In this document: positions 9,854 to 63,057 of the stretch, one piece after another | Layout of the letters: every line of letters begins with the position of its first letter | Numbering within the stretch: position 1 is the first letter of the stretch | DNA from: Candidatus Omnitrophota bacterium | GTDB taxonomy: Bacteria > Omnitrophota > Gorgyraeia > Zapsychrales > Zapsychraceae | Assembly (NCBI GenBank): GCA_050250375.1 | Contig: JBFWOS010000002.1 | Location: 645,149-709,148 of the forward strand | Length of the DNA: 64,000 nt | Direction of reading: 5' to 3' | The notes under the pieces: generated by a model | Database searches by the model: none | Told to the model about the DNA's origin: nothing | The model's input: only the letters and a program-made list of their open reading frames with translations | Position numbers and translations under genes: made by a program

Positions 9854-10108
9854 ATGGCGAAGTTAATCATTGATAATGTTGAACACGAAATTCCGGACGG
9901 GTCCAAGATTGATGAGATCTGTGAAAATGAAGGAATTCCGTTCAGCTGTAATTCGGGGGTTTGCGGGACCTGCCAGATTGAAGTGCAGGAAGGCCGTGAA
10001 AATTTGAATGACTTAAACGATGAAGAAAATGAACTCGGTATGGACCGCAATAACCGGCTAAGCTGTCAGTGCCGTATAATAAGCGGGACCGTTAAAATAA
10101 CATATTAA
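9854..10108 (+). CDS. 2Fe-2S ferredoxin
   Basis: 84 aa with C-x4-C-x2-C (CNSGVCGTC) and a fourth distal cysteine. Starts 2 nt after the ispH stop. Confidence 0.7.
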   Translation: MAKLIIDNVEHEIPDGSKIDEICENEGIPFSCNSGVCGTCQIEVQEGRENLNDLNDEENELGMDRNNRLSCQCRIISGTVKITY

Positions 10109-10109
10109 T

Positions 10110-10559
10110 ATGAAATTTAATCTCTCGTCAACTCCTCTGGAACATCTTAATTTAAAACAGGATCTGGCCACGGATTCTTCCGGGGCCCTTTGCTGTTTTG
10201 AAGGAATTGTCCGCGACCGCAATGATGGCCGCCGGGTGACGGCGCTCGAATATGAGGCGTATCCTGAGCTTTGTGAAAAAGAAATGCAGAAAGTTTTTCA
10301 GGAAGTTAACCAAAAATTTAAAGTAATCCGGGTCAATTGTTTTCACCGCACCGGCCGGCTTAAGGTCGGCAAGATGGCGGTTTGGGTCGGCGTGACCTCG
10401 GCCCATCGGGATGACGCTTTTAAGGCCTGCCGGTTTGTTATTGACCAATTGAAAGAGCGCCTTCCTATTTGGAAAAAGGAATATTACGTGGAAGGTGATT
10501 CCGGCTGGATCAACACTCAGAAAAATGAATTCCCGCAGGGTTCGGTGCTCAGTTCTTAA
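10110..10559 (+). CDS. moaE: Molybdopterin synthase catalytic subunit
   Basis: MoaE blocks FEGIVRD, LEYEAY and PIWKKE. Confidence 0.8.
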   Translation: MKFNLSSTPLEHLNLKQDLATDSSGALCCFEGIVRDRNDGRRVTALEYEAYPELCEKEMQKVFQEVNQKFKVIRVNCFHRTGRLKVGKMAVWVGVTSAHRDDAFKACRFVIDQLKERLPIWKKEYYVEGDSGWINTQKNEFPQGSVLSS

Positions 10560-12624: not shown

Positions 12625-13644
12625 CTATCCTCCGATTTGGAACATTTCGATCCTGGTTGTATGTTCCGGTTTGGCCGGTTGGGCGGCTCTGAGATTGGAA
12701 TATTGGTCTTTTCGTGTCCTCCAGACCGTGCGGATAAATTGTGTTAGGGTTTCGGTATCAGCGCCTTTTTGCAAAATCTCTTTGATATTCGGGCCGGTCT
12801 CGGCAAATAAACAGGTCACCAGCCGTCCGTCCGTTGTCAGCCGGATCCGGGTACAGGATTGGCAAAACGGCTGGGTCACCGACGAAATAAACCCGATTTC
12901 TCCCATTCCGTCTTTGAACCGGTACCGGTTGGCCACTTCACCATAATACTGACTTTCAGCCGGTTCAATCGGAAATTTCTGATTGATCCTCTGGACGATT
13001 TCTTTGGAAGGGACTACATATTTTCTTTCCCAATGATTACAGGTGCCCACATCCATATATTCGATAAAACGGACGATATGGCCGGTGCCGCGAAAGTAAT
13101 CAACCATGTCCAGGATTTGATGGTCGTTGACCCCTTTCTGCACGACCACATTGATTTTAATCGATTCAAATCCGGCTTTTTCAGCCGCTTTAAGTCCCAG
13201 AAGGACTTTTTGAATGGGGCTGTCCGTGCCGTTCATGACTTTAAAAACGCGGGAATCCAAAGTATCCAGGCTGACGGTCAGACGGCTTAAGCCGGCTTGT
13301 TTTAAAGGTTCAGCATATTCGCTCAATTTGGACCCGTTGGTGGTCAGAGCCAGGTCTTCGATTCCGGGCAGCCCGGAGAGTTTCTCAACCAGTTCCGTGA
13401 TCTTCGGGCGCAGCAGCGGCTCACCCCCGGTCAGCCGTATTTTCCGGACACCGCACTGGACGAACGCATCCGCGATCCTGTAAATATCGTCAAAACTCAA
13501 CCATTGTTCTTGGGCCAGAAATTGGTACGGGCCGTGGTCTTCTTCTTTCGGCATACAATAAGTGCAGCGGAAATTGCAGCGGTCGATGACCGAAATGCGC
13601 AGGTCATGTAATGGGCGGTTGAGCAGGTCGGTTGGTTTTTCCAT
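12625..13644 (-). CDS. moaA: GTP 3',8-cyclase, radical SAM
   Basis: CNFRCTYCMP radical-SAM cysteine motif plus the C-terminal MoaA cysteine triad (CQSCTRIRLTTDG). Confidence 0.9.
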   Translation of the reverse strand: MEKPTDLLNRPLHDLRISVIDRCNFRCTYCMPKEEDHGPYQFLAQEQWLSFDDIYRIADAFVQCGVRKIRLTGGEPLLRPKITELVEKLSGLPGIEDLALTTNGSKLSEYAEPLKQAGLSRLTVSLDTLDSRVFKVMNGTDSPIQKVLLGLKAAEKAGFESIKINVVVQKGVNDHQILDMVDYFRGTGHIVRFIEYMDVGTCNHWERKYVVPSKEIVQRINQKFPIEPAESQYYGEVANRYRFKDGMGEIGFISSVTQPFCQSCTRIRLTTDGRLVTCLFAETGPNIKEILQKGADTETLTQFIRTVWRTRKDQYSNLRAAQPAKPEHTTRIEMFQIGG

Positions 13645-55859: not shown

Positions 55860-56474
55860 TTAATCAGCATTAACCTCTTCTTCTGTAGGAAAATTTGAAA
55901 ATCTCTTGTTATATTTACGGACATCTTTTTGTGTCCAGAAAATATCTTTAACATTACGTATTCTTTTAAATTCATTTATCAAAGCAGCTGATAATCGGGT
56001 ATTATATTTTTTCGCCATTTTTAAAAATACGAGATCTTTTAACAAATAAACTTCGGTTCTGCCTCCCTTATATTTTGTCAATATCTCTAATATCTTATCA
56101 ATTGGAAGTTTCCCCTTTGGTTCAAGGTACAATACCATTTTATTCGAAGCAAATTTCTTTGTATCTTTATTAATCTTGTTGCACGTTTCAAAGACGACCT
56201 GAACAGCTTTTTTCAGCGGTATGTTGAAGAATTCTCTTTTTTTATTTATTCGGTTTAAATCTAATCTTTTGTGAATTAAGTTTTCAGCTAAAATCGAATC
56301 AAAAACATCTTCCTCATAAAGAACTTCAAATTCGGAAGGTATGCCAGTACCTGAAGAAATTTCTTTTGCTCGTGTCTCCGAAATCCTACTCGTTCTCCCA
56401 ATTTTAATGATGGCATCCTTGTGATAAGGATTACGCAATATATAAATTTTACCTGCCTTCTTATTATTCATCAA
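55860..56474 (-). CDS. T5orf172 / MUG113 (GIY-YIG-like) domain protein
   Basis: GKIYILRNPYHKDAIIKIGRT matches the T5orf172 core (G.VY.L.N....KIG.T). Confidence 0.7.
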   Translation of the reverse strand: MMNNKKAGKIYILRNPYHKDAIIKIGRTSRISETRAKEISSGTGIPSEFEVLYEEDVFDSILAENLIHKRLDLNRINKKREFFNIPLKKAVQVVFETCNKINKDTKKFASNKMVLYLEPKGKLPIDKILEILTKYKGGRTEVYLLKDLVFLKMAKKYNTRLSAALINEFKRIRNVKDIFWTQKDVRKYNKRFSNFPTEEEVNAD

Positions 56475-56495
56475 ACTCTTGGATTCCCAGAATTT

Positions 56496-57218
56496 TTAAT
56501 CCGCCATCAGAATTTTCAACATTTTTGGATAATTGTTAATGAATTCTTTAGTCACCTGATAATGCTCTGTTTTGGTGTAATCAATATTTTTGATCCCGGA
56601 TTCTTCCAGAACAAAGATGCATGAATCGGGATAGGCCATAAGTATCGGCGAATGAGTTGCAATAATAAATTGGGAATTCTGGCTGACAAGATCATGGATT
56701 CTTGAAATCAAGGCCAGTTGTCGTGACGGGGATAAGGCCGCTTCAGGTTCATCAAGTATATAAAGACCGTTTCCACTAAAACGGTTTAAAACCAGCGACA
56801 TAAACGATTCTCCATGGGATTGATCATGGAGGGCCTTGTCCCCATAACTATCCCCTACGCCCAATTTTTTAACTTCCGAGGCCACATTATAAAAACTTTC
56901 GGCCCGAAGAAAATATCCGTCTTTAGCGTGACTTGTTCCTTTCGACAATCTCAGGCACTTATACAGATCAGAATGTGTCGATTGTGTCGAAAAATTAAAA
57001 TTTTTCGATCCGCCTTCAGCGTTAAATCCCCATGAAATCGCGATGGCCTCAAGAAGAGTTGATTTGCCTGAACCATTTTCACCCACAATAAATGTAACAT
57101 GTGGGTGGAATTCCAGATTGTCCAGATAACGTACCGCTGGAAGATGAAAAGGAAATTCCTTGAAGGAACTTACTTTGTCTTTTAAAAGTTCTGCTTTTAA
57201 TAAATATTGTGTGCGCAT
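56496..57218 (-). CDS. Small ABC-type (AAA_21-like) ATPase
   Basis: Walker A GENGSGKST, Q-loop, Walker B/D-loop ILDEPEAALSP and H-loop IIATHSP. Only 240 aa. Confidence 0.75.
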   Translation of the reverse strand: MRTQYLLKAELLKDKVSSFKEFPFHLPAVRYLDNLEFHPHVTFIVGENGSGKSTLLEAIAISWGFNAEGGSKNFNFSTQSTHSDLYKCLRLSKGTSHAKDGYFLRAESFYNVASEVKKLGVGDSYGDKALHDQSHGESFMSLVLNRFSGNGLYILDEPEAALSPSRQLALISRIHDLVSQNSQFIIATHSPILMAYPDSCIFVLEESGIKNIDYTKTEHYQVTKEFINNYPKMLKILMAD

Positions 57219-57300
57219 ATTCGATCTTGGGACACATACCGTAACCCGAACGGATTAGGGTTCAGGTGTGTGTTCCCGGAATTACCACAGAATTAAAGTA

Positions 57301-58206
57301 TTATTTTTTTTCGATTCCATAGTGCATCATTTGAACATCAATCGGTTCTGGTTTGGTTGAGTTTGTCATTAAAGAGACTATAGCCATCAAAGATGTTGTG
57401 TCAGGTACAACAAATGAACTTTCCAAAGTCAAAGCTCCTTTATTCTCGTGAATGACCATACTCTTAAATGAAACTATCATGTCCGATAAGTTTGAATTTT
57501 GTTCCCCTTTTTGAACTGTCAACATTAGTTTGGCAGGAACTATTTCAACCTCATAGTTTATCTGGAATGTCATCTTTATTGTATCCCCAACATATAAGAT
57601 TTTCTGAGATTCTGGAGAATAAGACAATATTCGCAGAGATCCGTTCGTGTTTGAATAGTTTTGAATTGATATTTGTCGGGGTTCCTGTATGGAATTAGTA
57701 TCAATATCATTTCCGTTTTCATCTACAACCTTATATGCCCGCATGTCATTAACTGAAGTTTTGTTATTACCAGCCATTAATAATGGAATAATAACCATGA
57801 CGGCTCCAGTTTTGGGTACTCTAAACTCTTGTTGGATTTTTGTAACTCCAGAATGGTTGGTAAGTACAACCGTTTTACTAGCAATTAAAACATTAGAAAA
57901 ATTTTCAGTTAATTCACCTTTTTGAATATTTAAGGAAATTACAGCATTTGGATTTTGAACTTTATATTCAAGTTCCACTTCGAATTGAACAGTTTGTCCC
58001 ATGATAAGTGGCGAAGAAGGGTCAGGCGAAATTGAAATTATCCTCAGTGCGTTTCCGTTTTCATCGTTAAGTGAACCTTCCCCGCAGCCGTAAAGAGCAT
58101 ATGCGAAGTTTATGCAAAAGCCAGAAATTAAGATATGTAAAAGAAATGTTAGGATTGACCTATTTACCATTGGAATCATTCGTCCAGAGTCGCGGGTTTT
58201 ATTCAT
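57301..58206 (-). CDS. Secreted/lipoprotein-like protein with two internal tandem domains of about 130 aa
   Basis: The domains SISPDPSSPLIMGQTVQFEVELEYKV... and SYSPESQKILYVGDTIKMTFQINYEV... are clearly paralogous. Confidence 0.45.
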   Translation of the reverse strand: MNKTRDSGRMIPMVNRSILTFLLHILISGFCINFAYALYGCGEGSLNDENGNALRIISISPDPSSPLIMGQTVQFEVELEYKVQNPNAVISLNIQKGELTENFSNVLIASKTVVLTNHSGVTKIQQEFRVPKTGAVMVIIPLLMAGNNKTSVNDMRAYKVVDENGNDIDTNSIQEPRQISIQNYSNTNGSLRILSYSPESQKILYVGDTIKMTFQINYEVEIVPAKLMLTVQKGEQNSNLSDMIVSFKSMVIHENKGALTLESSFVVPDTTSLMAIVSLMTNSTKPEPIDVQMMHYGIEKK

Positions 58207-58337
58207 TTCGTAACCGCCTACAAAAAGGTGACGGCCTTTTTACATTGGTGATATTAGGATGCTTCTTGCCCATCACTTCTCCCCTCCGTTTGGATAAGAT
58301 TCTTGTGTCCCCGGAAATTCTAAGTTATTTTTCGATG

Positions 58338-58781
58338 TTAATTTTTTGAAATATTTTCAATCTCAATTTTTAAAGTCGTCAGGGTCAGCCGTATATCGAG
58401 CATGAAAAGCGACAGCGAGATGATCAGAGAAATAAGGCTCACCGCGAAAATAATCTCAATGGTCACATTTAAATTGACCCCGAAAACGATGGATAAAAAC
58501 AGCAAAAGCACATCGAGCGCCACACAGGCAATGCTGAAGACCAGCAGGGCGATCGCGCTGCGCAGATACCGGCAGCGGTTGTAAATGATGGTGATCTGTT
58601 CTTTTAAAAATCGTTTATCAGCGTCTTTGGCTGCGGCGGTTTCTCTGATCAGGAAGCGCACCCGATCGCTGGCGCGGCCCAGGCGGTTGGTCATGGTCAA
58701 TAAAAGAAAACCAAAGCCTGAGATCAGCAAACACGGCGCCACAGACGCCTGCAGGGTTTTAATGATACTATCGGTGTACAT
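58338..58781 (-). CDS. DUF2721-like membrane protein
   Basis: 147 aa, 3 transmembrane helices, LLLTMTNRL motif. Confidence 0.45.
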   Translation of the reverse strand: MYTDSIIKTLQASVAPCLLISGFGFLLLTMTNRLGRASDRVRFLIRETAAAKDADKRFLKEQITIIYNRCRYLRSAIALLVFSIACVALDVLLLFLSIVFGVNLNVTIEIIFAVSLISLIISLSLFMLDIRLTLTTLKIEIENISKN

Positions 58782-58859
58782 ATTTGCTTCCTTTTAAACA
58801 ATGCGGTAATTTTAAACAGTTAAACGCCAAACATTTTTTTAATTAATAAGGCTGCCTAT

Positions 58860-59708
58860 TTATTTTATAATATCCTTATTTCTTTCCCACCATTTAACAA
58901 TATTGTCTAGAACGAATGGGTTCCAGTCAATATTTGCTTCTTCCGCAAAAATTTTGCCAGCATAATATGTGGTGTTGAGACTATTGCTATTACTAAGAAT
59001 GCCAAATAAGAAATTCAGTTTCTTATATCTTGAAAAATCACTTCGTGTTTTCAAATATTCAATCAGAGCGGGCTGGTTAGCTAAAGTAATTTCACTGTAT
59101 AGTTTTTGAAAATCTTCAAATGTTAAATTATTTGGATCATAATTTAATTTTCTCCAATCAATTACGATATAACCAGGAGGAGAACGAAATTTAAGTCGTA
59201 TTTCATGAACAGTCTGATATGCTTCAATAGCAAAAGGGTGATTTGGATTTGAAGTTAACTTGATTAGTTCGTTAAACGAAATTCTATTATCATTTTGAGC
59301 AGATAATACTAAACGTGAAAAGTCTGAGATTTGTTCAATTTCCTGAATTTTTGAAAAAGCATCAGACGTTAATCCCGATACCTTGGCGAGATCTATTTCA
59401 AGTGTTTTAGTTTTTTCAGAAATTGTTGATTTGGCTTCTTCTATTGCAGGATCAAGTTTTTTCTCGATAAGGTTAGTGGCTTCTTGAATTGCAACTTTCT
59501 CAAGAGTGCTTTGAACGTTTGGCTCAGTAAATTTTTCTTTGACCGTTAAATTGATGCCTACCTGAGATAATAAGACTAAAATTAGTGATATAACGCCTAT
59601 CCATATGTTTAACCAAGCGATTAACTCAGATTTGATTTTATCGGTTTGCTTTTTAATTAAGGCTTCATCATTATTATCCGGCTTATTATTTATTATTGGT
59701 ATGCTCAT
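58860..59708 (-). CDS. Hypothetical membrane-anchored protein
   Basis: 282 aa with one transmembrane helix near the N-terminus. No known domain. Confidence 0.35.
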   Translation of the reverse strand: MSIPIINNKPDNNDEALIKKQTDKIKSELIAWLNIWIGVISLILVLLSQVGINLTVKEKFTEPNVQSTLEKVAIQEATNLIEKKLDPAIEEAKSTISEKTKTLEIDLAKVSGLTSDAFSKIQEIEQISDFSRLVLSAQNDNRISFNELIKLTSNPNHPFAIEAYQTVHEIRLKFRSPPGYIVIDWRKLNYDPNNLTFEDFQKLYSEITLANQPALIEYLKTRSDFSRYKKLNFLFGILSNSNSLNTTYYAGKIFAEEANIDWNPFVLDNIVKWWERNKDIIK

Positions 59709-60237: not shown

Positions 60238-60534
60238 TCAGCCGCCGGCCACGGAGCCGACAATCATAAACGGTTCTTGGCCTTTGGCCACCGCTTCCGG
60301 TAAAAGTTTATCGGGCGGATCATGGGTCAGGTCTTCTTCGCAGGCGAAAAAACGCAGGAACGCCCGGCGTTTGAATGTGCCGTGGTCGCGGACCGTTCCG
60401 CGGAGCATCGGATAACGTTTTTCCAGCGCGTCCAGGACCGCGCGCTGGGTCACCGGTCCCTCAACCTCCAGATTGACTTCTCCCTCGACCCGGGCCAGGG
60501 TCTTTAAATGGGCCGGGATGATCACGCGAATCAT
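60238..60534 (-). CDS. MoaD/ThiS-family ubiquitin-like sulfur-carrier protein with C-terminal Gly-Gly
   Basis: 98 aa ending ...MIVGSVAGG. Its start overlaps the stop of the upstream BNR gene by 4 nt. Confidence 0.6.
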
Positions 60535-61709
60535 GGGATGCTCTGCACCTCGACAGAATAGACCGACGGAAGGTCATGCACGATCGCCTCCCAGCGGTCA
60601 CCGCCATCCACCGAGGCGTAAACCTGCCCTCCGGTCGTGCCGAAATAAATGCCGCAGTCATCGAGGGTGTCAACCGCCATGGCGTCGCGCAGGATGTTCA
60701 CGTAACAGTCTTTCTGCGGAAGGCCGTTGGTGAGCGCCTCCCATTCGTTGCCTCCGGTGCGGCTGCGGTACACGCGCAGTTTTCCTTCCAGCGGAAAATG
60801 TTCGGAATCACTTTTGATGGGCACGACATAAATGGTCTCGGGTTCATGCGCGTGCACGCCGATGGGGAAACCGAAATCGGTCGGCAGGTTGCCGCTGACT
60901 TCTTTCCATAAATCGCCGGCATTATCGCTGCGCATCACGTCCCAGTGTTTCTGCATAAAAAGGACGTCCGGCCTCGACGGGTGAAGGGCCATATTGTGGA
61001 CGCAGTGGCCGACCTCGGCGTCCTGGTCCGGGATATATTGGGATTTCAACCCTTTGTTGATCGGTTTCCAGGTAATGCCGCCGTCATCGGTGCGAAACGC
61101 GCCGGCCGCTGAGATGGCGATATAAATCCGTTTGGGGTTTTTCGGGTCCAGCAGGATCGTGTGCAGGCCCATGCCTCCGGCGCCGGGTGTCCATTGGGAG
61201 CCGGTGCCGTGCCCGCGCAGACCGGATAATTCCTTCCAGCTTTTTCCGCCGTCTTTGGTGACAAAGAGCGCGGCGTCCTCGACTCCGGCGTAGACATGAT
61301 CAGGGTCGGTCAGGGACGGTTCCAAATGCCAGACACGTTTGAATTCCCAGGGGTGCTGGGTGCCGTCGTACCATTGATGGGTCGTTAACGGATGGGCCTG
61401 GGTGTCGTACATAAATTTGTTGCTTTCCCCCATGGGAAAACCTTCCGGTGAGGTGGTCATTTCACCGGGCGGGGTTCCGGGCTGGTACCAGGTTTTGCCG
61501 CCGTCATCGGAACGCTGGATGATCTGGCCGAACCAGCCGCTGGTCTGTGAGGTATAGATACGGTCAGGATCGACCGGTGAACCTTTCATGTGATAAATCT
61601 CCCAGCCGGCGAAATGCGGACCGCTGACGTCCCACTTTTTGCGCTGGCTGTCCGAGGTGAGGATAAAGGCGCCTTTGCGTGTGCCGGCTAAAACCCTGAC
61701 TTTCTTCAT
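60531..61709 (-). CDS. BNR/Asp-box repeat protein (Ycf48-like / sialidase-fold beta-propeller)
   Basis: Four S-x-D-G-G-x-(T/S)-W Asp-boxes ([32 protein letters not shown]). No signal peptide. Confidence 0.7.
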
Positions 61710-61865
61710 GGTTATCTCCTTTTTTTACTGGGAACAGTTGGCTCAAGAATTATACAATCATCTTTTGGGTAAATCCATCAAGAATTTTTGCAATTGTGCC
61801 GAAAGGAAACGGCATTAATTTTTGGCTGTTCATTTTCTTTTTTTTGATTAAAATAGAACCTGCTT

Positions 61866-63002
61866 ATGGAAAACTTTTCCCAGGAAGAAAAAATCCGGTA
61901 TTCACGGCAGACCATCCTGCCCATGATCGGCGCGCAGGGACAACAGCGGCTGAAAGACGCGCGTGTCCTTCTGGTCGGCGCGGGGGGCCTGGGTTCGTCC
62001 CCGGCCATTTATCTGGCCGCGGCCGGCGTGGGGACCATCGGCCTCATCGATGCCGACACGGTGTCCCTTTCCAATCTCCACCGGCAGGTGCTTCACTATA
62101 CTTCGGATATCGACTGTCTTAAGGTCGACTCGGCCGCGGACAAACTCAAACAGATCAATCCGCATGTGCAGGTGATTAAACACCCGGTGCGGCTGACAGC
62201 GGTCAACGCGCGTGAGATCATTTCCGGTTACGACCTGATCATAGACGGCACGGATAATTTGCCGTCACGGTATCTCATCAATGACGCGTGTTTTTTTCTG
62301 AACAAACATTTTATTTTCGGCGGTGTGCACCAGTTTGAAGGCCAGGTCAGTATTTTCGGTCCGGGCGGCCCCTGCTACCGCTGTCTTTTTCGTGAACCGC
62401 CTCCCCCTGAGGAAATGCCGTCGTGCGCTGAAGCCGGTGTGATCGGTGTTGTCCCGGGCATCATCGGGCTGATGCAGGCCAATGAAGCGGTCAAATGGAT
62501 CTGCCGGATCGGCGAATCTCTGTTGGGACGGCTGCTGATCTTTGACGCGCTTTCCGTGCGCTGGCACGCGGTCACGATCAAAAAGGATCCGGACTGTCCT
62601 TTATGCGGGACATCTCCGACCATCCATTCCGTTGAAAATGATCAATGGCATTGTGCCGTTCCGGAGAAACCGCAGGAAGCCGTTATCGCAGAAATCACGG
62701 TCAAAGAATTAAAACAGCGGCGCGATCAGGATCCGGACCTTTATTTGCTGGATGTGCGGGAACAGGCGGAATGGGACATCGCGCGTATCGACGGCGCGTG
62801 TTTAAAACCGTTAAGTAATCTGGATGAGAATTTTGAAGATATCCCCAAGGACAGGACAGTGTATTGTTATTGCAAAGCCGGCGGGCGCAGCGCCCGGGCG
62901 ATTGAATTTCTGCAGTCCAAAGGTTATACCGATTTGGTCAAGATCAAAGGCGGCATTGAGGCCTGGTCAAAGGAAATTGATCCGACCATTGCGCAGTATT
63001 AG
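61866..63002 (+). CDS. moeZ: MoeZ/MoeB-type E1-like adenylyltransferase with C-terminal rhodanese domain
   Basis: ThiF Rossmann VGAGGLGS and CxxC zinc motifs (CYRC...CPLC). The C-terminal rhodanese has its active Cys in CYCKAGGRS. Confidence 0.85.
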   Translation: MENFSQEEKIRYSRQTILPMIGAQGQQRLKDARVLLVGAGGLGSSPAIYLAAAGVGTIGLIDADTVSLSNLHRQVLHYTSDIDCLKVDSAADKLKQINPHVQVIKHPVRLTAVNAREIISGYDLIIDGTDNLPSRYLINDACFFLNKHFIFGGVHQFEGQVSIFGPGGPCYRCLFREPPPPEEMPSCAEAGVIGVVPGIIGLMQANEAVKWICRIGESLLGRLLIFDALSVRWHAVTIKKDPDCPLCGTSPTIHSVENDQWHCAVPEKPQEAVIAEITVKELKQRRDQDPDLYLLDVREQAEWDIARIDGACLKPLSNLDENFEDIPKDRTVYCYCKAGGRSARAIEFLQSKGYTDLVKIKGGIEAWSKEIDPTIAQY

Positions 63003-63003
63003 T

Positions 63004-63057
63004 AAAAAGGTGACGGACACCGTTTTTCAATATAAAAACGGTGTCCGTCACCTTTTT
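63004..63057. terminator. Bidirectional palindromic terminator, second identical copy
   Basis: aaaaaggtgacggacaccgtttttcaatataaaaacggtgtccgtcacctttttt between convergent moeZ and the Na/Pi gene. Confidence 0.75.

Follow-up and report, generated by a model that had tools for sequence, protein, structure and literature searches.

Why should a sulfur carrier of the ubiquitin-like (Ubl) type be encoded in one operon with a β-propeller? The question is raised by a locus at positions 60238-63002 of a 64,000-nt stretch of DNA (the window) from a metagenome-assembled genome (MAG) of Candidatus Omnitrophota; all negative results given for the window refer to these 64 kb. The carrier gene is an open reading frame (ORF) at 60238-60534 on the minus strand, and its 98-aa product is a CysO/SAMP1-like β-grasp protein that terminates in ...GSVAGG, i.e., C-terminal Ala-Gly-Gly. 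Immediately upstream, the propeller gene (60531-61709, minus strand) encodes a 392-aa cytoplasmic seven-bladed Asp-box (BNR) β-propeller. The carrier ATG and the propeller TGA share 4 nt as ATGA (60531-60534, minus strand), consistent with translational coupling, and AAGGAG is located 7 nt 5′ of the propeller ATG. Transcribed divergently (61866-63002, plus strand) is the gene for a 378-aa adenylyltransferase fused to a rhodanese domain (E1; MoeZ/Uba4 architecture). The sequence-only reading of this DNA had reported a GG-ending MoaD/ThiS-like protein, its 4-nt overlap with an Asp-box protein and a divergent E1-rhodanese gene, all of which were borne out by the ORF list, the sequence and Pfam, and it had assigned carrier and E1 to molybdopterin synthesis. 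Our analysis indicated instead that the carrier and the propeller form a conserved unit. We consider it somewhat probable that they define a phylum-spanning Ubl/sulfur-carrier pathway with an Asp-box propeller as effector (a thiocarboxylate-dependent sulfurtransferase or a receptor of the Ubl tail), distinct from molybdenum cofactor (Moco), thiamin and cysteine synthesis and from tRNA thiolation. The better frame is the alternative that the sequence-only reading had also raised, in which the carrier serves sulfur transfer or ubiquitin-like conjugation of a distinct kind; its centre would be the propeller-carrier coupling.

The conservation of the pair was examined in a scan with one genome per GTDB species, which returned 588 relatives; the best 80 loci (main clade) were inspected. 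The carrier gene was downstream of the propeller gene and on the same strand in 73 of these 80 loci, representing at least 8 phyla. The identical 4-nt overlap was present in 34 of the 73 pairs and also at several loci of a divergent clade, and 68 of 72 complete main-clade carriers had the AGG terminus. Main-clade loci were mostly from Acidobacteriota; the others were from Omnitrophota, Nitrospirota, Planctomycetota, Verrucomicrobiota, Myxococcota (Anaeromyxobacter oryzae), Gemmatimonadota, Binatia, Bacteroidota and Proteobacteria. Where the two genes were separated, the inserts were unrelated cargo, e.g., a PIN toxin or DUF4440. An exhaustive search of representative sequences with the propeller gave 1,335 clusters at 50% identity (E<=1e-30), and the family comprised more than 8,000 clusters at 90% identity in each of two clades.

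The pair was also found in distant clades, in other arrangements. Burkholderiaceae showed the reversed order, with an 89-aa GG carrier immediately upstream of a propeller only 30% identical to that of the window; 53 of 54 plasmid or chromid records retained both genes, and the bearers included Ralstonia, the B. cepacia complex, Paraburkholderia and C. metallidurans CH34. Arthrobacter had a GG carrier downstream of the propeller. Among 80 divergent metagenomic loci, which together with the main-clade loci make up the 160 used for neighbourhood comparisons, a carrier was present in 20 of the 22 loci of the sub-branch nearest to the query (~60% identity). One protein from the search of representatives (P0457; locus L087, 602-1966) is a carrier-GG-propeller fusion in which a ThiS domain ending ...AVSGG is joined to the propeller by a 9-residue linker (ASDVRKGSA). 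The fusion is in frame at the DNA level, but the only contig known to carry it is 2.3 kb long; either it is a sequencing artefact, or it is genuine and the product would have to be cleaved after GG. Another protein (P0384; L088, 1050-3453) joins a Hanks-type Ser/Thr kinase to the propeller; 8 nt downstream of its gene begins that of a 93-aa ThiS-family protein with the terminus ...AVSGG. A second kinase-propeller fusion (L096, 3-1838) is followed by a GG carrier gene overlapping it by 4 nt, and neither of these two metagenomic fusions has a membrane segment between the domains. Four architectures of the pair were therefore observed: propeller then carrier, carrier then propeller, carrier-GG-propeller fusion, and kinase-propeller fusion then carrier. 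All Burkholderiaceae, Arthrobacter and kinase-linked carriers examined ended in GG. Because adjacency recurs in 73 of 80 reference loci and in distant clades, it is far beyond chance; the propeller and carrier genes are a conserved, often translationally coupled unit, and the adjacency, widespread in reference genomes rather than unique to this one, spans at least ten phyla of bacteria. Retention of the GG terminus across such deep divergence implies chemistry at the carrier C-terminus.

What kind of carrier is it? The AlphaFold2 model was a β-grasp fold (pLDDT 91, pTM 0.83) with tail residues 95-97 disordered. The top Foldseek matches of this model were SAMP1 (3po0, 9.7e-6) and CysO (4n6e_B, 8.7e-5; 3dwg_C, 2e-4), with TM scores of 0.73-0.82, and MoaD chains ranked at place 9 or lower. 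A profile (A4) made from an alignment of propeller-linked carriers of all clades was run with hmmsearch against PDB sequences and reported to E<=1. It matched CysO (3dwg_C, 2.1e-15; 4n6e_B, 2.5e-15), SAMP1 (9e-10) and a Thermus MoaD-related protein (1e-7), gave TtuB only 0.28, and found no canonical MoaD or ThiS structure at E<=1. The window carrier itself had no match in Pfam or NCBIfam at E<=0.01, and its score against the Pfam ThiS model (PF02597) was 13.2 bits, where the cut-off is 22.5. Divergent-clade carriers did pass the Pfam ThiS model (12 of 17 alignment members; best E-value 1.5e-12). They were 32-43% identical to a CysO sequence in a small local comparison; this likeness was confirmed independently by the profile search of PDB. 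The main-clade carrier has a 5-residue insertion and an invariant Cys64. That the carrier is longer than canonical MoaD, as had been remarked, is correct, and the surplus is explained by a CysO/SAMP1-type architecture plus the short insertion specific to the main clade. By fold and by profile, the carrier is a CysO/SAMP1-type β-grasp protein that keeps the GG terminus; it does not cluster with canonical MoaD.

These results bear on the simplest explanation, that the carrier is this genome's MoaD, activated by the MoeZ-type E1 and acting with MoaE, and that the propeller is an unrelated co-transcribed gene. The window does contain moaE (10110-10559, verified by Pfam) and moaA (12625-13644, with the radical S-adenosylmethionine motif CNFRCTYC), as had been stated. 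No GG-ending MoaD-like ORF was found beside moaE in that part of the window; the usual moaD position, 2 nt upstream of moaE, is occupied by a gene (9854-10108) for an 84-aa 2Fe-2S ferredoxin (Pfam Fer2, 8.8e-13). Furthermore, the best NCBIfam matches of the E1 are MoeB and MoeZ, relatives of the carrier are labelled 'MoaD/ThiS family' or 'molybdopterin synthase sulfur carrier subunit' in source records, and Ubl sulfur carriers can reportedly be functionally redundant (PMC11323500). However, the carrier gene is ~50 kb from moaE, the carrier is inherited together with the propeller in the main-clade loci and in Burkholderiaceae, no moa gene recurs among the neighbours of main-clade pairs, and the ThiS score and the profile matches separate the carrier from MoaD. 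We therefore regard its role as simply MoaD to be very improbable, and the assignment to a molybdopterin pair was not upheld; in this particular genome, of which 64 kb were seen, the carrier may have a dual role with MoaE.

The propeller of the window passed the Pfam cut-offs for Sortilin-Vps10 and BNR. No N-terminal hydrophobic signal was seen, and residues 3-10 form the first β-strand of the AlphaFold2 model (pTM 0.86), in agreement with the earlier description of the protein as cytoplasmic. Its sole real sequence relative in PDB was 3b7f (3.3e-73, 34% identity), to which the model had Foldseek TM scores of 0.81/0.86; further structural neighbours were GH74 domains (~0.6), followed by sortilin, Ycf48 and DAIP. 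3b7f is Reut_B4987 of Cupriavidus/Ralstonia eutropha JMP134, recorded as a 'putative glycosyl hydrolase with BNR repeats'; the crystal structure became public in 2007. It was solved by the Joint Center for Structural Genomics as a seven-bladed Asp-box propeller of function 'not known' (PMC2716378), and a link to sulfur carriers is not mentioned in that paper. The frequent annotation as exo-α-sialidase (GH33) is unsupported, because sialidase chains matched only a single Asp-box (residues 47-76, E 0.07-0.13); in addition, no sialidase was among the top 50 Foldseek matches, and the propeller has seven blades rather than six. A GH74 xyloglucanase, which has two tandem seven-bladed propellers, was also rejected; the window protein is a single 392-aa cytoplasmic propeller that matched one domain, with target-normalised TM scores of 0.30-0.36. 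The BNR protein of Price et al. belongs to a different family (COG4447/RND).

Sequence identity among propellers was nearly flat across the tree, with a mean of 0.81 within phyla and 0.78 between phyla; 142 of 392 columns were invariant among 50 sequences from 8 phyla, and propeller and carrier identities were correlated (r = 0.51). Polar residues invariant across two clades of 30% identity fell into two groups, the structural Asp-box positions of the bottom face and a second group of twelve: T10, K12 (nearly invariant), H183, S200, Y225, H238, Q253, H255, D301, Y336, R341 and T359. Judging from strand order in the predicted secondary structure, all twelve would lie on the top face, in blades 1 and 4-7. 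Two conserved loops, 107-122 and 166-178, were modelled at low confidence.

The E1 of the window matched Pfam ThiF (9.8e-80) and Rhodanese (7.5e-17). It has the nucleotide-binding motif GAGGLG, a four-Cys zinc site (C170xxC...C244xxC), Cys187 and the rhodanese loop C336KAGGRS, and its closest PDB relatives are Uba4 (1.4e-59), MoeB and ThiF. Its best NCBIfam scores remained below the equivalog cut-offs (MoeZ, 418.5 vs 647 bits; MoeB PRK08762, 421.6 vs 449 bits). By these sequence criteria the E1 is of MoeZ/Uba4-type architecture, yet it is not assignable to a named NCBIfam equivalog. Among the 80 main-clade loci, the only one with an adjacent MoeZ-type E1 was that of an Omnitrophota relative (L001), in which the gene is likewise divergent and its product 71% identical. 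In a gammaproteobacterial MAG (L056), a gene for a PRK12475-type ThiF protein without rhodanese lies upstream of the propeller gene in the same orientation, with 12 nt between them. MoeZ-type E1 genes were also near the pair in loci L135, L163 and L168, with a rhodanese domain in the latter two; the L135 copy is truncated and its C-terminal end is missing. E1 genes have evidently been recruited to the pair repeatedly, in varied arrangements and from two subtypes, which supports E1-dependent activation of the carrier C-terminus. Two sub-threshold NCBIfam matches were observed: NF045728 ('F510_1955 family glycosylhydrolase') on the propeller and NF045521 ('rhoda_near_glyco') on the rhodanese domain of the E1. 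The name of the latter hints at a curated neighbourhood of a rhodanese beside a BNR 'glycosylhydrolase' in other bacteria; F510_1955 is a secreted Anoxybacillus lipoprotein without known function (PMC3948429).

How might these parts work together? The reading that we favour, tentatively, is that propeller and carrier are a dedicated two-protein system apart from Moco synthesis, with the propeller as a new sulfur-acceptor enzyme. The carrier and the propeller would be made in a coupled fashion through the ATGA overlap. The E1, whose architecture and motifs are observed and whose use of the carrier as a substrate is suggested by gene adjacency, would adenylate the C-terminal glycine of the carrier, and the persulfide on rhodanese Cys336 would then give the thiocarboxylate. 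Conservation and propeller topology suggest that the flexible Ala-Gly-Gly tail would dock in a top-face pocket lined by K12, H183, S200, Y225, H238, Q253, H255, D301, Y336 and R341, which are invariant across relatives of 30% identity. The low-confidence loops fit this scheme, because such modelling is expected of segments that become ordered on binding. The propeller, as a counterpart of MoaE, ThiG, CysM or BexX, might then pass the thiocarboxylate sulfur onward; speculatively, the sulfur could be delivered to a small molecule, perhaps resembling a sugar, to make a thio-metabolite, or to a metal centre at the hub of the propeller, to build a metal-sulfide centre there. To our knowledge, every characterised non-E1 protein that is co-encoded with a GG β-grasp carrier is its sulfur-acceptor enzyme (MoaD-MoaE, ThiS-ThiG, CysO-CysM, TtuB-TtuA). 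This precedent and the invariant His and Asp residues of the pocket are the reasons for preferring a sulfur acceptor.

Several observations weigh against this reading. No Cys is invariant across the propeller clades, and there is no catalytic precedent for sulfur chemistry among the structural neighbours, since 3b7f is unassigned and the rest are glycosidases or binders of peptide tails. An E1 gene adjoins the pair in only ~6 of 160 loci; because the E1 is just occasionally part of the module, it is probably a shared housekeeping activator in most genomes. Across the divergent metagenomic loci as a whole, the carrier was present in 35 of 80; the farther loci were mixed, some with the carrier upstream and many without it, so that pairing is dominant but not universal across the superfamily. 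Some partners have no GG: in Nonomuraea gerenzanensis (L084, 5084-5395) a β-grasp-like ORF downstream of the propeller ends ...YVLPALA, and the propeller-adjacent β-grasp proteins of L099, L123 and L164 also lack a terminal GG, which suggests that the C-terminal chemistry has been lost in some lineages. Finally, the fusions to a kinase suggest that the propeller acts in binding or as a sensor.

The GG-less partners could also mean that the β-grasp protein only assists the propeller passively, as a structural or chaperone subunit, and is never activated at its C-terminus, with Gly-Gly as an ancestral remnant; the usual absence of an adjacent E1, and the internal position that GG would take in the P0457 fusion, would fit. 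Such a subunit is improbable in view of the GG retained in nearly all main-clade carriers, in the Burkholderiaceae, Arthrobacter and kinase-linked carriers and at the fusion junction, and of the independent recruitment of E1 genes. Moreover, β-grasp proteins that have given up carrier function (TmoB, RnfH and YukD families) typically lose the GG.

The kinase fusions lead to a stronger competitor, in which the propeller is not an enzyme but a receptor or covalent target of the activated carrier tail that senses whether the carrier is free, thiocarboxylated or conjugated. Some lineages would have wired this read-out directly to a Hanks-type Ser/Thr kinase; such a Ubl-tail receptor could thus feed Ser/Thr-kinase signalling. 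Besides the two fusions, each with a GG carrier gene within 8 nt or overlapping by 4 nt, the Sortilin-Vps10 match points in this direction, as do sortilin, Ycf48 and DAIP, the non-glycosidase structural neighbours, all of which bind C-terminal peptide tails. The closeness of the carrier to SAMP1, which both carries sulfur and modifies proteins, the nearly invariant Lys12, the occurrence of propeller-only clades, and the presence of regulators (HxlR- and PadR-type) and detoxification-type genes among the recurrent neighbours are also consistent with it. Yet none of the components of a conjugation system, such as a JAMM/JAB protease or an E2, recurred in the 160 loci, PADLOC was silent for the pair, the rhodanese domain on the window E1 points to sulfur chemistry, and the invariant top-face His and Asp residues together with ~80% cross-phylum identity exceed the usual needs of a simple tail pocket. 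A receptor is a strong but less probable alternative, and we retain the sulfur-acceptor enzyme as the preferred role.

Clustering of the neighbours in the 160 loci revealed no third universal gene. The candidates (HxlR, YCII, VOC, DUF4760, PIN, DUF4440, EamA, PadR, UDG and a Ralstonia MBL-fold hydrolase) were all lineage-specific, neither CysM nor Mec/JAMM recurred, and the propeller was the sole recurrent partner of the carrier. PADLOC defence models matched neither carrier nor propeller and matched the E1 via the generic ThiF core only. Bacterial Ubl conjugation or antiphage systems with E1, E2 and JAB (Bil, CBASS Cap2, 6A-MBL) were rejected on this ground and for want of recurrent E2 or JAB genes. 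A scan of viral contigs gave only a 25-residue Asp-box match.

Some individual loci showed peculiarities. Four carriers (L004, 7986-8288; L010, 7179-7484; L137; L158) have 2-3 extra residues past Gly-Gly (GGRK, GGRGL, GGSE and GGQK) and would need proteolytic processing; no JAMM protease gene is nearby. A 4.3-kb contig of a Bathyarchaeia bin (L074) carries a propeller of 76% identity and a carrier in an archaeal MAG, which probably reflects binning contamination or recent transfer. Three long homologs (P0003, P0005, P0006) were rejected as fusions; they contain internal tandem duplications of ~60-95 residues in the blade-2/insert region, which are either assembly artefacts or real variants. 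At a divergent locus (L090), an ORF (1429-1581) that overlaps the propeller stop by 4 nt was rejected as a truncated carrier; it is a YqeC-like P-loop fragment (27.1 bits vs cut-off 27.6). YqeC is an accessory protein of selenium-dependent molybdenum hydroxylases.

In the window, the propeller operon and the E1 gene are separated by a 156-bp divergent intergenic region (61710-61865, from the ORF coordinates), in which an Rfam search revealed no element and a scan for a sigma-70-like consensus no promoter match; a search for riboswitches and RNA elements in the region 5′ of the operon, covering the window and 11 loci, gave nothing relevant. One acidobacterial locus has an Acido-Lenti-1 small RNA (L007, 3745-3789; Rfam RF01687, 38.9 bits) ~2.2 kb 5′ of the propeller gene; the two are probably unrelated. 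A terminator scan placed a bidirectional intrinsic terminator with a 20-bp stem at 63007-63054, closing the E1 transcription unit; sub-threshold Rfam 'miRNA' matches there were rejected as mere hairpin matches to the terminator. GC content at third codon positions (GC3) of the pair was 0.68-0.71, just above the normal range of the window (top 0.67), and recent horizontal transfer into this genome is not clearly indicated. Beside the carrier gene lies a low-GC islet (55860-59708; GC3 0.24-0.36 vs 0.45-0.71 elsewhere) that encodes a T5orf172/MUG113 protein matching the PADLOC candidate PDC-S57 (1.8e-22), an AAA_15/AAA_21 ATPase with mad3/AriA/PtuA-like matches, and two ORFs without family. The islet is likely a foreign defence-type insertion, separate from the propeller-carrier pair.

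No description of the propeller-carrier pairing was found in full-text literature on BNR or propeller proteins with sulfur carriers, 3b7f or F510_1955, and a propeller partner is not mentioned in the Iyer/Aravind surveys of β-grasp proteins. The pair is thus a sulfur-carrier/Ubl system with a new partner class for which no prior description was found. Sulfur-carrier β-grasp proteins are the prokaryotic ancestors of ubiquitin. As far as we know, with each new partner class so far (MoaE, ThiG, CysM, TtuA, BexX) a new chemistry of sulfur insertion or a new way of modifying proteins has come to light. The propeller is among the most conserved proteins of its genomes (~80% identity between phyla) and occurs in thousands of them, including those of dominant soil phyla (Acidobacteriota, Verrucomicrobiota, Planctomycetota, Nitrospirota) and of the tractable or clinically relevant B. 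cepacia complex, Ralstonia solanacearum and Cupriavidus metallidurans. Its function is therefore open to direct genetic and biochemical work in model strains. The findings also correct a widespread annotation, because the pair genes, in Burkholderiaceae for example, are now variously labelled 'sialidase' and 'thiamine biosynthesis protein ThiS'.

Of the known systems, MoaD-MoaE with MoeB/MoeZ likewise combines a β-grasp GG carrier with an E1, and in moaD-moaE the genes of the two subunits, small and large, are typically coupled in translation; here, however, the carrier is not linked to moaE, its profile misses MoaD structures, and the propeller fold is unrelated to MoaE. Urm1-Uba4 and archaeal SAMP1-UbaA have the same E1-rhodanese architecture and function without E2 or E3, Uba4 being the nearest solved E1 and SAMP1 the top structural match of the carrier. 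Their carriers act with tRNA thiolation enzymes (Ncs6/NcsA) and are conjugated to many targets, whereas the present one has a single propeller partner, dedicated to it and encoded beside it, and no PP-loop ATPase accompanies them. Sortilin/Vps10, Ycf48 and DAIP share the Asp-box fold and provide the precedent of a propeller that grips the free C-terminal tail of another protein; they differ in similarity (TM 0.34-0.6), in blade number (10 in sortilin), in their extracellular or lumenal location, and in having no Ubl or sulfur link. CysO-CysM of Mycobacterium tuberculosis and CysO/BexX of the Amycolatopsis 2-thiosugar pathway have the same carrier fold, the nearest profile, a GG terminus and a MoeZ-type E1 with rhodanese, which here too would serve the carrier, and there too the partner is expected to receive the C-terminal tail. 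In those systems the partner is a pyridoxal phosphate-dependent sulfhydrylase or a ThiG-like enzyme; here it is a seven-bladed Asp-box propeller, no Mec/JAMM protease accompanies it, and the main-clade carrier has diverged past the Pfam ThiS threshold, with its insertion and Cys64. The closest comparison for the propeller is 3b7f, which comes from the divergent clade with reversed gene order; it is of the same family and the same single seven-bladed Asp-box fold, and its Burkholderiaceae clade has the carrier gene immediately upstream.

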